This document shows, in pieces, positions 1,938-8,521 of a stretch of DNA of 64,000 nucleotides (position 1 is the stretch's first letter; every line of letters begins with the position of its first letter). Origin of the DNA: Candidatus Thorarchaeota archaeon (GTDB lineage Archaea; Asgardarchaeota; Thorarchaeia; Thorarchaeales; Thorarchaeaceae). The position numbers and the translations under genes were made by a program. Below the pieces are notes generated by a model. It did not search any database. It was given only the letters and a program-made list of their open reading frames with translations, and had not been told where the DNA came from. The stretch lies in NCBI GenBank assembly GCA_016933575.1, contig JAFGAR010000081.1:64001-128000 (forward strand). The letters are read 5' to 3'.

Positions 1938-2504
1938 CTAAGCATCTTGAGCGAGTGCTTCTTCACCTGCTTTCATACCAAGTTCCAATGCAAGTAGATT
2001 GCTCTTGAGAAATCTTGGCCACCTCTCTTCTATCCGGGCTTTAAGGCCTTCAATAGAGAGTGCTTTTGTAATGACCGCAAAGGCTCCAAGCATAACCACA
2101 TTCGTTGCCTGTTTGTTGCCCACATCCTTGTCTGCAATCCGTGTTGCTGGAATCTTGTAGACCTTCACACCCTTGGGCAATTTTCCTTCAACTTCTACAA
2201 GGTCTTCATCTAGTATCAGTGTTCCATTCTCTTTGAGACCATCAATATATTCCAGGTATGCTGCTCTGCTAAGCACTACGAATACATCGGGTGCTTGGAC
2301 TTTAGGATAGTCAACCTCTTCATCCGAGATGACAATCTCGCTCTTACTGGCCCCACCACGAGCCTCAGGTCCATAGGACTGTGTCTGAACGACATATTTC
2401 TTGTCATAGAGCGATGCAGTTTCTCCAACAACTACTGCCATCGTTACAACGCCTTGACCGCCAAATCCTCCAATCCTAACCTCATACCTACTCAAGTCAA
2501 TCAC
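1938..2504 (-). CDS. korC: 2-oxoacid:ferredoxin oxidoreductase gamma subunit
   Basis: GFGGQG, QSYGPEARGGAS, NVVMLGA. Confidence 0.9.
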   Translation of the reverse strand: MIDLSRYEVRIGGFGGQGVVTMAVVVGETASLYDKKYVVQTQSYGPEARGGASKSEIVISDEEVDYPKVQAPDVFVVLSRAAYLEYIDGLKENGTLILDEDLVEVEGKLPKGVKVYKIPATRIADKDVGNKQATNVVMLGAFAVITKALSIEGLKARIEERWPRFLKSNLLALELGMKAGEEALAQDA

Positions 2505-3343
2505 CTTTGGGCTTTCTTTTGCATCTCTCTGAGAACTTCTGTGTACTCTGGCTTCTCAATATCCACGAACTCACCACACACAATTCTAGTTGCATAGTCG
2601 AGTTCTGCCTCATGGGGTGGAAGCCCGTTCTGAATTTCTGCTACTTCCAGTAGGTGTCTGTGCATTTCAACACCATCACCAAGCCGATTCATTCGACCAT
2701 ATGCTGTTGGACATGCTCCAATGATCTCAACGAAAGAGAATCCCTTCTTTACTATTCCTTTCTCAATCGATTTTGTTGCACGTCGTGCTTGGACTGCAGT
2801 CCATCTCGCGACAAAAGTTGCTCCTGAGGATGCTGCTAACTTCACTAGATTGAATGGATGCTCAATGTTTCCAATTGGTGCTGGACTTGTCTGTGAGTAT
2901 CGTTCATGTTCGGTTGTAGGCCCGAACTGTCCGCCGGTCATGCCATAGTTGAAGTTGTTAATGCAGATTACCGTCATGTCGATGTTTCGTCTGCATGCAT
3001 GAATCAGGTGATTTCCTCCGATGGCTGCAATATCTCCGTCACCACTGACAACAATGACCTCAAGCTCTGGGTTTGCAATCTTTACACCTTCTGCAAATGC
3101 AATAGCCCTGCCATGCGTAGTGTGATAGGTCCCAGTCTTGAAATAACCTGATGTACGTCCAGTGCATCCTATTCCTGAGATAACGACTGTCTTGTTGAAG
3201 TCAATCCCAAGATTGTCGATTGCTCGTGCGATCATCCCGGTAACAATACCGACGGAACAACCTGAGCAGTAAATCCAAGGCTGACGATCTTCTCTGATGT
3301 ACTTAGCCATTGGATGTTTGAGGACGTGTACAGACTCTGTCAT
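2501..3343 (-). CDS. korB: 2-oxoacid:ferredoxin oxidoreductase beta subunit (TPP-binding)
   Basis: CSGC, SGIGC, HGRA, GDGD...GGNH, NNFNYGMTGGQ. Confidence 0.92.
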   Translation of the reverse strand: MTESVHVLKHPMAKYIREDRQPWIYCSGCSVGIVTGMIARAIDNLGIDFNKTVVISGIGCTGRTSGYFKTGTYHTTHGRAIAFAEGVKIANPELEVIVVSGDGDIAAIGGNHLIHACRRNIDMTVICINNFNYGMTGGQFGPTTEHERYSQTSPAPIGNIEHPFNLVKLAASSGATFVARWTAVQARRATKSIEKGIVKKGFSFVEIIGACPTAYGRMNRLGDGVEMHRHLLEVAEIQNGLPPHEAELDYATRIVCGEFVDIEKPEYTEVLREMQKKAQR

Positions 3344-3792
3344 CGGAGGTACTCCTTATCACGAGTTCGATGCAAACATGATAAAAGGGTTGTTGATGCG
3401 GTTGTCCATTTCAGGATGCAGAATTAACACTGTTAATAGATAACTTACTAATGAATGACCTTAATGGCTAGTACTATACCCTTCCAATCTTGGTGTTTTG
3501 TTTAGAGCTTTTGAAAAATCCCGTCATATCCAAATTGAAGTTATTTATACATTCTAGTGAACGATTGTTGCCTCTAATCCTCAGTCATGACATCATAGTA
3601 GTCGTTACATGATATCCTGTTATCAGTATAGAATGTCTTTCAGGCATTGTTTGTTCAATTAAGCAACCTTGCGAAGCTATATACTGATGATTGTACACCA
3701 TGATATTCAGTATGTATCTCAATTAATTAGATATAACGAATCACTCCCTCCGAAGAAGGCTAATATTCATCCTCCACAAAGACTCCATTAAG

Positions 3793-5385
3793 GTGGGTCA
3801 AATGGCTGGCCATGTAATTGAAGCAATCCTCATCACTGACAAAAACAGTAATCCTCGATTCTACATGCAGCTTGACCCGAGAGCGTTTGGGATGGACCCT
3901 ATCCTTGCATCTAGTTTCTTTACAGCAATAGACATGTTCTCAAAAGAAGTATTCCAGCAGAGTGCTCCTGTCTTCCATGTTGACTATGGGGCTCATATCT
4001 TCACCGTGCTGAATGGTGAGACTGCCCACCTGATTGCTGTTGGTGTCCAACGACTAAACACTGAGATTATTCAGATTCTTGATTCTCTGTTGAACGAGTT
4101 TGAAGATAAATGGCTACCAACTACTCAGATGCTTGATAGTGATGCTCCTTTTGTAGATGCGTACCTAGAACCCTTTGGCGAGAGCGTCATGATGAAGCTC
4201 TCCTTTGATGATCTTCCAGATTCTTGGGTTCCCTATTTCACAGTGGATCCAAATGCTATCGTCACAACAAGTGGTACGCTTGTACCTATCATTAATGGCT
4301 CTCGGAACATGAAAGAAATATTGGACTTGAGTGGTCTCTCAAAACGCGATCTCTACCTTGAGATATCCAAATTGTGGGCTTATAGGGTAATTCGTTTTCG
4401 AAACACCCTTAGCTTCAATGATTTTGTTGCATCACGAATTGAATTCTTCAAATACGTTCAGACGACCTCTCGAGAAACTGAAACTCTACGTAGTATTCAT
4501 CCAAATATGGTCACCATTATTCCAAGACTTGCGGGGTTGATGGATGGTCGAAGAAGTGTTAGAGAGATTCTTGTCCATCTAGGATCTATATACGATGAGC
4601 GTGAAATTCTTCGAGTTCTCGATTATCTACTTGAAAAAGGAGTCATCGAGGCACTCCCCCCAGAGAAACGACGTATCCTCCTCGTGAAAGAAGTTCTTGA
4701 GATGACCCTGCGTATTGCTGAAGAATATCACCAGCAGGAAACAGTAACTAATCTTCTAATTTCTGCAATGACAGCCAGCGAAGCGCCTGAGACCCTTGCC
4801 CAACTACGCCTCTCGGACAATCATTGGTCTGTTGATTTCGATATCAAGATACTAGAGGGTCTCAATAATCGAAGGCTTATGCTAATCTTTGGTGAATGGA
4901 TAAAGATTCTCGCTCAGTTTTCCGCAGGAATTGACCCAAAGAACCTCAACGCATTTGTCACTAAATTGACCAAAGCATTTCACGATAGAATCGCGACTCG
5001 CTTTGCCGGATTTGATCTACGAGGTTTTGAAGAGTACTCTTTCTGGTTAGAGCAATTGACCCATCAAGATATGATTCAGGTCAAGACCATAAGGACTGGG
5101 TCCTTGAAGCCCACTGGAGAGAATCCTGCTGAAGAGATGATTTTCACTTTGGTAACTAGAGGTCAAGCAATATACGGTACAGATCGAATTACGCGAATCT
5201 GTGCAGCAGCCAACATACCACTGATGGATATTCCACCGGATTATTGGGTGGACTGGCAAAAGAATCAGAGCCTTCAGCGCCTGATGTTGGAATATGCAAA
5301 ATTTGGAAGTGCTGCAAAATTCACTCTATTGATTCTTTCAATTCGTCTAGGGATTTCTTTGCCGCAGTCTATCACTTTTGAATAG
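3793..5385 (+). CDS. Longin-domain protein with tandem winged-helix domains (NPRL2/GATOR1-like architecture)
   Basis: N-terminal longin pattern (AILITDKNSNPRFY...LASSFFTAIDMFSKEV...FTVL...HLIAVG); two DG/NG-x-x-[SN]-x-x-EI wHTH segments. Confidence 0.6.
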   Translation: MGQMAGHVIEAILITDKNSNPRFYMQLDPRAFGMDPILASSFFTAIDMFSKEVFQQSAPVFHVDYGAHIFTVLNGETAHLIAVGVQRLNTEIIQILDSLLNEFEDKWLPTTQMLDSDAPFVDAYLEPFGESVMMKLSFDDLPDSWVPYFTVDPNAIVTTSGTLVPIINGSRNMKEILDLSGLSKRDLYLEISKLWAYRVIRFRNTLSFNDFVASRIEFFKYVQTTSRETETLRSIHPNMVTIIPRLAGLMDGRRSVREILVHLGSIYDEREILRVLDYLLEKGVIEALPPEKRRILLVKEVLEMTLRIAEEYHQQETVTNLLISAMTASEAPETLAQLRLSDNHWSVDFDIKILEGLNNRRLMLIFGEWIKILAQFSAGIDPKNLNAFVTKLTKAFHDRIATRFAGFDLRGFEEYSFWLEQLTHQDMIQVKTIRTGSLKPTGENPAEEMIFTLVTRGQAIYGTDRITRICAAANIPLMDIPPDYWVDWQKNQSLQRLMLEYAKFGSAAKFTLLILSIRLGISLPQSITFE

Positions 5386-5468
5386 GAACACTATTCTATC
5401 TTTGTAATGATAACCGTTATCTGATACCAATCACAAGTGTCCAGTATAAGTATGTGAGATGATTTAGA

Positions 5469-5990
5469 ATGAGTCCGACATATCTTCTCAAAGTAGTCAC
5501 CGTTGGATCCGCATCTGTTGGGAAGACAAGTCTCATTATCCGATACTCAACTGGCGTCTTTCGAGAACACTATTCCCCAACTCTTGGAACTGGATTTGCA
5601 TACAAGAAGATGCGGATTGATAACAACCTGGTGAATCTTCAGATCTGGGATTTGGGATCACAGGATTTTCTTGAACGGGTTCGAGCGAATTACTATATTG
5701 GGACCCAAGGAGTCATCTTTCTCTATGATGTTACTTCTTGGGAGTCGCTGAACGATGTAGAAGAATGGAAGAACGAAGTGGATCGCAATGTCGAGGATTA
5801 TCAAGCACTACTGGTGGGCAATAAGGTTGACCTTGTAAATGAACGTGTGGTTCCCATAGAAGAAGGTCTGAAACTTGCTGAACGTTTTGGGATGAAATAT
5901 ATCGAAACTTCTGTACGTGATGACAAGAATGTCAACAAAGCATTCGAAATGATTGCAAGGAGTATCAGCGAGTCGTTGTTCAAGAAATGA
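5469..5990 (+). CDS. Rab-like small GTPase (Ras superfamily)
   Basis: G1 GSASVGKT, G2 YSPTLG, G3 WDLGSQ, G4 GNKVD, G5 ETSV; no C-terminal prenylation cysteines. Confidence 0.92.
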   Translation: MSPTYLLKVVTVGSASVGKTSLIIRYSTGVFREHYSPTLGTGFAYKKMRIDNNLVNLQIWDLGSQDFLERVRANYYIGTQGVIFLYDVTSWESLNDVEEWKNEVDRNVEDYQALLVGNKVDLVNERVVPIEEGLKLAERFGMKYIETSVRDDKNVNKAFEMIARSISESLFKK

Positions 5991-6965
5991 TCAATGGTCA
6001 ACTCCAGAGTAGTAGGGTGATGCGTCGAGAATTCTCTTCATCGCCTGTCCTTTGAAGAGCTTAGCAATGTGTCTTTTCATACCCATCATTGATTTCATTT
6101 CTTCAAGGTACTGATCAAAGGTCCTTGTCTGAAATTTCAAGAGTCTCTGGGATTCTTCCGTATCTAGCCAATCCGTGTAGAAATACTCTTCAGGTTTTGT
6201 GGCAATCTTGAAAGCTGAGTCAGGAGGCATCTCCATACCCATTGCTTCCATGAATTTCGAAAGGAATTCACGTTGTAGCATTTGTCCTGATTTTCCCCCT
6301 CCAATCAGAAGGGTTTTCCCCACAGTATCTGCTTCCACTGCATTAGCGCACGCTAATCCGACATCTCGAGAGTGAACAAATTCAATTCTCTGATCCAATG
6401 GTATTTCAAACAAGATTGGATCAATATTAGTACCCACATTCATTGGAGGCGCTGCAGCAAACCGAAGGATTGTCCAAGGAAGTGAAGACGCTCTAACCAA
6501 TTTTTCGCATTCAATTTTGGTTTCCGTGTAGGTGTCTGTTGCTATAAGTGGATCATTAATAGTTCTCGGTGGTTGGAGATGCATGGTTGGTCCGAATGCT
6601 GATACCGAGCCAGCAAAGATGAACTTTGGAACTTGTTCTTGACCCTCGGCAACCTCGAGCATATTTCGAGTCCCCTCTAGATTCACACCTCTAGCTAGTG
6701 TTGGTTTCTGTTCGGAAAGCGGTGGGATGATACCTGCAAGGTGAATGACGCAATCTACTCCTTCGAAGATTGGCTCCAGATATATTTTTTCTTGAATATC
6801 TCCCCAGACTGTTTCAAACTTGCCTCTTCTACTCAGCTGCTTCTGCTTCTTCTCATTATTCTTTGTAAATAAATCAAAACATCGAATATCATATCCTTTT
6901 GAGAATAATGCTAAGAGTGAACTCTCACCAATATTTCCGAAAGCACCAGTCAATAAAACTCTCAT
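5991..6965 (-). CDS. NAD-dependent epimerase/dehydratase (extended SDR)
   Basis: TGAFGNIG Rossmann motif, VIHLAG, YxxxK (YTETK). Confidence 0.85.
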   Translation of the reverse strand: MRVLLTGAFGNIGESSLLALFSKGYDIRCFDLFTKNNEKKQKQLSRRGKFETVWGDIQEKIYLEPIFEGVDCVIHLAGIIPPLSEQKPTLARGVNLEGTRNMLEVAEGQEQVPKFIFAGSVSAFGPTMHLQPPRTINDPLIATDTYTETKIECEKLVRASSLPWTILRFAAAPPMNVGTNIDPILFEIPLDQRIEFVHSRDVGLACANAVEADTVGKTLLIGGGKSGQMLQREFLSKFMEAMGMEMPPDSAFKIATKPEEYFYTDWLDTEESQRLLKFQTRTFDQYLEEMKSMMGMKRHIAKLFKGQAMKRILDASPYYSGVDH

Positions 6966-7033: not shown

Positions 7034-8170
7034 TCACATTGAATTGATATCTCTGATTTTGTCTAAGATTTCATGGGGTAATTGAGGCATTCCCGCAGGC
7101 TTTGCCATAAGGTGAACTGGAGTCGGAGCAGCAGATGCACGCACCATGTGGTATACTTGTCCCAGATTTTGTTCTGCTACAATAATATGGTCGACCTCAG
7201 TAGCAAGTTCTGCTACTTGCTCGTCTGGAAATGGCCACACAGTCTTTAACCGCAATAAGCCGACTTTGATTCCTTCTTTCCGAGCTTCTTTTATTGCCCT
7301 CTTTGCACTTCTGGATGGTGTGCCATATGATATTACAGCAATCTTAGCATCATCCAATGCAACACGTTCTAAATCTATTATTTTGTCTGCATTGTGTAGG
7401 ATCTTGTTATTGAGTCGAGTAATAAGGTCGATCTGGACTTTCTCCTTATCACTTGGATATCCTCTCTCATCATGAGTCAATCCCGTTGCATAGAACTGAT
7501 ATTTTGACCCGAAAAGTGCCATTGGCGGTACAAGATCATCATCGGGTTTGAAGGGGAGATAGTCTTCTGGGTCCACAGTTGGTATTTTGCGATACTCAAT
7601 CTTCAGGTCTTTCTCATCTGGAATGACAAGTTTCTCTCTCATATGACCAACTGTTTCGTCTGCGAGGACAAAGACAGGTGTACGATATCTCTCAGAAAGA
7701 TTGAATGCCTGTACTGTCTGATCAAACATCTCTTGAACTGATGCTGGGGTCAATGCAATAATCTGGTAATCCCCATGACTTCCCCATTTTGCCTGCATGA
7801 CATCTCCTTGCTGTCCTCTTGTTGGTTGGCCAGTACTTGGTCCACCTCTCATGATGTTCACCAATACCAAAGGTGTTTCAGTCATCACTGCTAGACCAAT
7901 AGCTTCAAGCATTAGACTCACACCCGGTCCAGAGGTTGCAGTCATTGATTTCACTCCGGTCCAAGATGCTCCAATCACACTTGTTATCGATGCTATCTCA
8001 TCCTCATATTGGACGTAGGCTCCACCTACTTCTGGCATCCTCTGGGACATCCATTCAGCTATCTCTGTTGCAGGGGTTATGGGATACCCACCAAAATAAC
8101 GACAACCTGCACTTAGCGCTCCTTCTGCACTGGCAATATCGCCCATTGTGAACATGATCCGTTCAGGCAT
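7034..8170 (-). CDS. korA: 2-oxoacid:ferredoxin oxidoreductase alpha subunit
   Basis: YPITPATE, EDEIAS, ATSGPG, RGGPSTG. Confidence 0.92.
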   Translation of the reverse strand: MPERIMFTMGDIASAEGALSAGCRYFGGYPITPATEIAEWMSQRMPEVGGAYVQYEDEIASITSVIGASWTGVKSMTATSGPGVSLMLEAIGLAVMTETPLVLVNIMRGGPSTGQPTRGQQGDVMQAKWGSHGDYQIIALTPASVQEMFDQTVQAFNLSERYRTPVFVLADETVGHMREKLVIPDEKDLKIEYRKIPTVDPEDYLPFKPDDDLVPPMALFGSKYQFYATGLTHDERGYPSDKEKVQIDLITRLNNKILHNADKIIDLERVALDDAKIAVISYGTPSRSAKRAIKEARKEGIKVGLLRLKTVWPFPDEQVAELATEVDHIIVAEQNLGQVYHMVRASAAPTPVHLMAKPAGMPQLPHEILDKIRDINSM

Positions 8171-8521
8171 CTATTTTGAAGCCTCCTGATTTTTAGACTC
8201 GTTATCAAACTCTGGAATGACAGTTCCTTCTTCAATAGCACCAGTTTTGTATGCATTTTCTGCTTCTTTTCGTTCTGCAAGGAAAATTGCCATGTCTGGG
8301 CAGATACGTTCGCAGAACTCGCAATTCACACAGGCTTCGATATCGCATGCAGTTACAGGATGGTATCCTTTACGATTATAGATATCAGTAAAACAAAGCA
8401 CATTTTTTGGACAGAATTCCACACAGAGACCGCATTCTTTGCACTGCTCCTGCAATATCACGAGAACCTTATCTCTAACTCTCGGTGGTTTTGGTGTAAT
8501 TGGTTTTCGAACCGTAGACAT
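8171..8521 (-). CDS. korD: 2-oxoacid:ferredoxin oxidoreductase delta (ferredoxin) subunit
   Basis: CKECGLCVEFCP and CVNCEFCERICPD; abuts the alpha gene. Confidence 0.85.
   Translation of the reverse strand: MSTVRKPITPKPPRVRDKVLVILQEQCKECGLCVEFCPKNVLCFTDIYNRKGYHPVTACDIEACVNCEFCERICPDMAIFLAERKEAENAYKTGAIEEGTVIPEFDNESKNQEASK

Follow-up and report, generated by a model that had tools for sequence, protein, structure and literature searches.

The 64,000-nucleotide stretch of DNA analysed here (the window), taken from contig JAFGAR010000081.1 of a Candidatus Thorarchaeota archaeon, carries two adjacent genes on its forward strand. One encodes a large protein with longin and winged helix-turn-helix (wHTH) domains that resembles NPRL2 and NPRL3 (P0003), the other a Rab-like small GTPase (P0002). 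NPRL2 and NPRL3 (Npr2 and Npr3 in yeast) are the longin subunits of GATOR1/SEACIT, the GTPase-activating protein (GAP) for RagA/Gtr1. We consider it reasonably probable (about 0.6) that the two genes encode a dedicated, co-evolving scaffold/switch pair, which is GATOR1-like in its architecture, not in its binding mode. The origin of GATOR1, of folliculin, of the C9orf72-type longin regulators and of Rab/Rag control is an open question of eukaryogenesis, and the locus offers a one-to-one co-evolving Asgard pair that can be directly expressed and assayed.

An initial annotation of the window had described an open reading frame (ORF) of 530 amino acids (aa) with a longin-like N-terminus and two wHTH segments, followed 83 bp downstream by a Rab-like GTPase on the same strand. 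We recovered this ORF at positions 3793-5385 (+), where it encodes 530 aa if read from a GTG codon, and all strings quoted from it (VPYFTVD, TLVPIINGSRNMKEILDLSGLS, ISKLWAYRVIRF, MDGRRSVREIL and LDYLLEKGVI) were found in its translation. Its true start, however, is probably the ATG at 3802, because a ribosome-binding-like motif (GGTGG, 3792-3796, +) lies 5 nt upstream of it, with the GTG at 3793 falling within this motif, and because the database relatives, nearly all of which are 524-533 aa long, align from this methionine. The gene would then extend over 3802-5385 (+) and encode 527 aa, the form on which our residue numbers are based (adding 3 gives the numbering from GTG). An intergenic spacer (5386-5468) of the annotated 83 bp separates it from the co-oriented GTPase gene at 5469-5990 (+), which encodes 173 aa. 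Judged by their sequences, both ORFs are real genes and not chance ORFs, because the first has 104 relatives and 98 loci in GTDB and the second matches Pfam Ras with an E-value of 2e-46.

The 104 relatives of P0003 were retrieved at E<=1e-3 among 5.8 billion proteins and all came from Asgard metagenome-assembled genomes (MAGs); the 98 loci belong to GTDB species genomes. Members are annotated as hypothetical proteins and are confined to Thorarchaeota and other Asgard MAGs, with 66 of the 87 genomes of the class carrying one. Among 79 loci, a GTPase gene lies directly downstream on the same strand in essentially every one where the contig allows it, and clustering of all flanking ORFs in 66 loci identified the GTPase as the only neighbour common to all clades. 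This linkage persists across regulators down to 36% identity and through one duplication. Regulator and GTPase trees (MAFFT alignments, FastTree, midpoint-rooted) showed an identical split into 40 and 22 loci without exception, which defines two paralogous pairs. In subfamily A, to which the window pair belongs, a C-terminal module (C-module) is fused to the regulator and the GTPases are 63-85% identical to P0002. Subfamily B encodes the C-module in a gene of its own (roughly 120 aa), and its GTPases are 51-57% identical to P0002. The linkage suggested by the initial annotation from a single locus is hence strict and extends to co-duplication. The genome of the window encodes 15 Ras-like GTPases, so that abundance alone does not explain the adjacency of regulator and GTPase.

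The same genome also contains a second cassette, of subfamily B (L081; G000:C101:25315-28849), with four genes in the order core (425 aa), separate C-module (122 aa), beta-lactamase-family gene (PF00144) and GTPase-B. This GTPase-B is 53% identical to P0002, and the beta-lactamase-family gene is inserted before it. A further A-type paralogue (585-aa ORF), found at L019:5056-7749 and in L020, lies beside a NifU/IscU-fusion gene and has no adjacent GTPase; the nearest Ras-family gene is 3.6 kb off and 35% identical.

Direct searches with P0003 against Pfam, NCBIfam and PDB sequences returned nothing significant, with only faint hints of PqqD/MarR wHTH domains. An AlphaFold2 (AF2) model built from 61 relatives (predicted local distance difference test, pLDDT, 82; predicted template modelling score, pTM, 0.75) showed four parts. 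Residues 1-135 (3802-4206, +) form a longin domain with the topology β-β-α-β-β-β-α-α, as delimited from the AF2 model, VIA structure comparison and column counts. VIA aligned residues 4-138 to synbindin, Sec22b, adaptin sigma/mu and TRAPP subunits with Z-scores of 10-12, over 113-131 residues at a root-mean-square deviation of about 3 Å, and structure searches also matched this domain to MglB and Asgard roadblocks. As far as the model goes, the longin assignment of the N-terminus is solid, as had been proposed from the sequence of the window. A tandem winged-helix unit (aa 136-287; 4207-4662, +), equivalent to the NPRL2/NPRL3 C-terminal domain, comes next. Behind it lies a helical domain that is specific to the family and includes a small hairpin (aa 288-425; 4663-5076, +); it carries the invariant motifs EKRRILL (288-294), ILAQF (369-373) and RGFEEYSFWLE (407-417). 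Structural searches with residues 286-425 gave only generic helical matches (Z 5-6); we assign no fold to this domain and make no claim of a new one. The C-module (aa 426-527; 5077-5382, +) consists of a linker and four helices, and corresponds to the separate gene of about 100-120 aa in subfamily B and in a more distant subfamily C described below.

The resemblance to NPRL2 and NPRL3 was recovered by several independent routes. A Foldseek search with the whole model returned exclusively NPRL2, NPRL3, Npr2 and Npr3 proteins as its top 13 matches (E-values 6e-6 to 1e-3). Since the whole-model VIA list was filled by longin matches, we folded residues 136-425 separately (pLDDT 90). The top 14 Foldseek matches of this sub-model were again NPRL2/3 or Npr2/3 only (E-values 9e-4 to 0.17), with the next match at a probability below 0.1. 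A wide VIA search of 48,161 chains, which is independent of Foldseek, placed NPRL3 (Z 9.3, 147 aa) and yeast Npr2 (Z 9.0, 150 aa) at ranks 1 and 2; both matches cover sub-model residues 1-152, i.e. the tandem wHTH unit. A search of the ESM Atlas returned clusters labelled NPR2, NPR3 and HTH_NPRL3. With a hidden Markov model (HMM) of the family searched against the PDB, the top three matches were human NPRL2 and yeast Npr2 (E-values 0.03-0.6, with NPRL2 first at 0.03), aligned on a pattern VP.FT...IDG.R....I that is common to the first wHTH of both families. The second wHTH resembles RRE/PqqD domains too. P0003 and NPRL2/NPRL3 thus have in common an N-terminal longin domain followed by a C-terminal tandem winged-helix domain of the NPRL2/3-specific kind, and P0003 carries a true NPRL2/3-like half. 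The likeness to NPRL2 noted in the initial annotation is therefore specific, both winged helices matching the NPRL2/NPRL3 C-terminal domain in Foldseek, VIA, HMM and Atlas searches.

None of the 61 family members matched Pfam NPR2 (PF06218) or NPR3 (PF03666), and for P0003 there was no match at E<=0.1; HTH_NPRL3 was matched weakly by 8 of the 61 members (best E-value 0.0036). Because no member reaches the Pfam NPR2/NPR3 thresholds, homology to NPRL2/3 rests mainly on structure and on the borderline HMM hit. We regard this homology as probable, with P0003 outside formal Pfam membership. Compared with NPRL2/NPRL3, P0003 has about 240 additional C-terminal residues. A search for DEPDC5/IML1 in the genome of the window, which is 85.5% complete, gave no match, but the controls likewise found nothing. 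The ESM Atlas search with model residues 166-417 further returned bacterial PatA_N (PF14332, PATAN) and PadR proteins at a template modelling score of 0.49 over 190 residues. Going by the model, these proteins may be remote bacterial counterparts of the part made up of the wHTH and helical domains.

The partner GTPase is, by sequence, Rab-like and not Rag-like. P0002 scored 157.9 bits against Pfam Ras versus 19.5 bits against Gtr1_RagA, which is under the cut-off of 22, and the client of this NPRL2/3-like protein is therefore not a Rag/Gtr GTPase. Its closest PDB relatives are Rab1/Ypt1 (8e-39), in line with the Rab-like identity given in the initial annotation, and the crystallised Thor-Rab 7EZB was matched at 9e-32. 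All five G motifs of Rab-like GTPases are present: G1 is GSASVGKT, the switch I (G2) threonine is T38, G4 is NKVD and G5 is TSV, while G3 is a variant, WDLGSQ (W-D-[LM]-G-S-Q in the family) in place of DTAGQ, with the catalytic glutamine kept. Across 36 orthologues and paralogues (alignment A2) the P-loop, the switch I threonine, NKxD and the catalytic glutamine are invariant, and G3 reads D-x-G-S-Q in 35 of the 36 sequences, the single exception being D-L-G-G-Q. The N-terminus M-S-P-x-Y-L is near-invariant in both paralogue groups. P0002 ends in SESLFKK, and none of the C-terminal tails in alignment A2 contains a cysteine, so that the C-terminal prenylatable cysteine or cysteines of eukaryotic Rabs are absent. 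Gtr1_RagA matches elsewhere in the genome of the window were considered as possible Rag proteins and rejected; they are short GTPase-only ORFs without a roadblock tail.

We predicted the complex of P0003 and P0002 and obtained an interaction prediction score from aligned errors (ipSAE) of 0.82 (0.84, 0.82 and 0.81 in the individual runs), against 0.00 for the best of three controls. Of 80 solved complexes, 58 reach the ipSAE mark that we applied, as do 2 of 110 mismatched pairs; this calibration holds only roughly here since the runs used their own alignments and included GTP/Mg. At least 90% of the contacts coincide between runs, and the pLDDT of the partners is at least 89. The complex prediction proposed for the pair in the initial annotation thus passes with its controls, and it supports binding without showing it. 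The predicted interface, on the other hand, is unexpected in that it is not the longin platform used in GATOR1, TRAPP or DENN. No longin residue takes part in it, and the predicted contacts are made by the helical domain, as the main GTPase-binding surface, and by the C-module, both of which are lacking in NPRL2. On the scaffold side they involve residues 288, 291, 325, 356-375, 407-418, 424-438 and 452-456, the last two segments belonging largely to the C-module. On the GTPase side they involve S16 of the P-loop, helix 1 (24-30), switch I and strand 2 (33-45), Q58 and switch II (65-78), and also residues 6 and 8 of the conserved N-terminus. Among the scaffold residues are the invariant E288, R291, G408 and E411 and the near-invariant W415, A371 and Q372; the contacts of E411 with S36, T38, L39 and G40 rank among those with the lowest error. 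Subfamilies A and B, which are linked to a GTPase, retain the LAQF and RGFEE motifs, and in distant members without a GTPase these have decayed.

We infer that P0003 either reads the switch state of its GTPase or sets it. Most probably, the helical domain and the C-module would clamp P0002 over switch I, interswitch, switch II and P-loop, so that binding would depend on the nucleotide state and may also alter it. The NPRL2-like longin/wHTH half would be left free for dimerisation or for downstream partners. We lean towards P0003 being an effector or transducer, which may in addition have GAP or guanine nucleotide exchange factor (GEF) activity, because a sister subfamily keeps the scaffold and the C-module but pairs them with a sensor-type di-iron ODP protein instead of the GTPase.

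This sister group, subfamily C, comprises distant members of about 417 aa with 20-40% identity and no adjacent GTPase (L088-L098, e.g. L090:4001-6317). In all 11 loci examined, a gene for an ODP-family di-iron protein of the metallo-beta-lactamase fold (PF19583, about 1e-51) lies beside the core, and in 10 of the 11 a homologue of the P0003 C-module of roughly 108 aa (E-value 8e-13) was also found; the remaining locus, L097, ends within the ODP gene. The gene order is core, ODP, C-module homologue, and the last two genes often overlap by about 10 nt. A single, more divergent member is flanked by neither a GTPase gene nor an ODP gene. In the genome of the window, at the completeness given above, ODP matches occurred in ORFs of roughly 400 aa away from family members, and no C-type cassette was seen. 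Genes of two-component systems (HisKA/HATPase_c, Response_reg-PAS) and PadR/MarR regulators lie nearby in L090 and L091. As scaffold and C-module are constant and the third component is swapped, a partner-reading scaffold is favoured over a pure enzyme. More tentatively, the loci might represent a modular Asgard cassette in which an NPRL2/3-like scaffold and a C-module are combined with one interchangeable switch or sensor protein; in subfamilies A and B this would be a Rab-like GTPase, in subfamily C a di-iron ODP protein of oxygen/iron-sensor type. The GTPase would then be an input read by the helical clamp and not the substrate of a longin GAP, and NPRL2/3 of GATOR1 would descend from the scaffold half. 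The predicted docking through the helical domain, together with the pairing of the scaffold with a di-iron sensor-type protein, offers a falsifiable alternative to the view of an ancestral longin GAP.

The distribution of P0003 relatives matches that of the Asgard NPRL2-like family of Liu et al. (bioRxiv 10.1101/2020.10.19.343400, Fig. 5c; Nature 2021), which the accessible portions of that work place in most Thor MAGs, and we assign P0003 to this family. The NPRL2-like family is, on the same portions, not new but already reported in 2020, which tempers the value of the present observations. The GTPase pairing is not described in the accessible portions of Liu et al. or of PMC12290439. The family description in the former, as far as accessible, includes no downstream Rab-like GTPase, helical domain, C-module, A/B co-duplication, ODP-linked subfamily or binding mode. 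The swappable-partner pattern and the binding mode are new and derive from prediction only. The initial annotation had further proposed a cognate regulator-GTPase pair resembling a prokaryotic ancestor of GATOR1/Rab control. The cognate pair has stood, through linkage, co-duplication and complex prediction, whereas the ancestry is putative.

Several observations weigh against a scaffold/switch pair that docks through the helical domain. Conservation is not enriched at the interface compared with the rest of residues 288-460 (permutation p 0.21), and residues 424-438, which the linker contributes to it, vary. The binding of scaffold and GTPase is a prediction only. No family member reaches the Pfam NPR2/NPR3 thresholds. 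Finally, two loops with G-x-P and DYG-x-R motifs form a conserved longin surface that could act on P0002 or on another GTPase.

An alternative with some plausibility, although we consider it unlikely, is that the helical domain is itself catalytic, either as a GAP through a TBC-like Arg/Gln pair (R291, Q372) or as a GEF through an acidic finger (the invariant E410/E411), which would perturb switch I and the Mg site in the manner of Sec7- or Vps9-type GEFs. The predicted interface would suit such a role, as it reaches residue 16 of the P-loop, takes in switch I with T38 and switch II with Q65, contains R291, Q372 and E411 as invariant or nearly invariant residues, and places E411 among the lowest-error contacts to switch I; the interface motifs also track the presence of the GTPase. 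However, the structural matches of the helical domain were generic ones only, and TBC, Sec7, Vps9 and other catalytic GAP or GEF folds were not among them. The use of the scaffold with a non-GTPase partner (ODP) in the sister subfamily also argues for partner binding, not nucleotide chemistry, as the ancestral role.

Less likely still is a GATOR1-type GAP, in which the longin domain would serve as catalytic platform and supply P0002 with an arginine finger, the role that Arg78 of NPRL2 plays towards RagA. The NPRL2/3-like architecture would fit this idea, and the loop before longin strand 2 carries a motif G16-x-P18 (consensus G-G-x-P) that is kept at 90% or more even in distant members. According to the accessible portions of PMC12290439, GAP longins are marked by a GP motif ahead of strand 2 with an arginine next to it, and the superfamily-wide G-x-P recalls the GP motif. 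In P0003, however, this loop reads N-S-N-P, i.e. S-N-P for G-x-P with serine in place of the glycine, and its spacing is unlike that of GP. The catalytic arginine finger of NPRL2, Arg78, presumably lies in the longin β4-β5 loop, which neighbours the G-x-P motif in the sheet. The equivalent loop (aa 71-75), mapped by secondary-structure topology and not by residue-level superposition, is NGETA in P0003 and [NSH]-G-[VEK]-x-T in the family, with no conserved arginine among 61 members. The failure of the initial annotation to locate an NPRL2-type arginine finger is thereby borne out. As a second candidate finger we considered R65, the arginine of a DYG-x-R motif in the β3-β4 loop that is kept in 47 of 61 members, and rejected it. 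Inferred from topology, R65 lies at the end of the sheet opposite the G-x-P loop, and in P0003 (DYGAH) and its whole subclade it is replaced by histidine, alongside V73E and N76H. Within 3976-4029 of the window (aa 59-76), positions 59, 65, 73 and 76 change jointly from Q/R/V/N to H/H/E/H in this subclade. The absence of longin residues from the predicted interface and the Rab-like, not Rag-like, nature of the partner also speak against a GATOR1-type GAP.

In the operons of MglA-MglB and of other prokaryotic GTPase/roadblock-longin pairs, including the Asgard LAMTOR1-like/Rab-like/DENN operon, a small GTPase is likewise encoded with a roadblock or longin protein. MglB, however, consists of one roadblock domain, whose platform face contacts MglA, whereas P0003 has four parts and a predicted helical-domain contact. 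For the FLCN/SMCR8-type longins of Heimdallarchaeia, a relationship to the GAP longins of eukaryotes has been proposed (PMC12290439, accessible portions). Going by the same portions, these longins share with the P0003 family a conserved glycine/proline loop before strand 2, but they keep the GP motif and the arginine finger and have DENN C-terminal parts, whereas the P0003 family has G-x-P, no equivalent arginine and wHTH domains.

The genes surrounding the pair bear on a further alternative. The pair lies on the strand opposite to a 2-oxoacid:ferredoxin oxidoreductase operon which is split into korB/korG (1938-3343, -) and korD/korA (7034-8521, -), and together with a NAD-epimerase gene (5991-6965, -) it parts the two kor halves. 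Such a kor-embedded arrangement was found again in 22 related Thorarchaeia loci and not in other clades; in these loci the epimerase gene is sometimes missing or on the other side of the pair. Two metatranscriptome runs of the source study contained nothing on the window locus, which says nothing on expression either way. The two wHTH domains, the divergent orientation relative to korB/korG and the position within the kor operon might suggest a GTPase-gated transcription factor whose winged helices would contact DNA, with the 458-bp region between the pair and the divergent korBG genes as one conceivable target. We consider this very improbable, as the kor context occurs in one clade only and is lacking in the other A-type and all B-type loci, and as the closest wHTH relatives (the NPRL2/3 C-terminal domain and RRE/PqqD) bind proteins or peptides, not DNA. 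We attribute the kor context to synteny within the clade and not to a link in function. That the two genes are mere neighbours, co-inherited without any interaction of their products, is hardly probable: the complex score is a model's own confidence, which would speak for this reading, but the linkage survives divergence to 36% identity as well as duplication, and the controlled complex prediction passes by +0.82.

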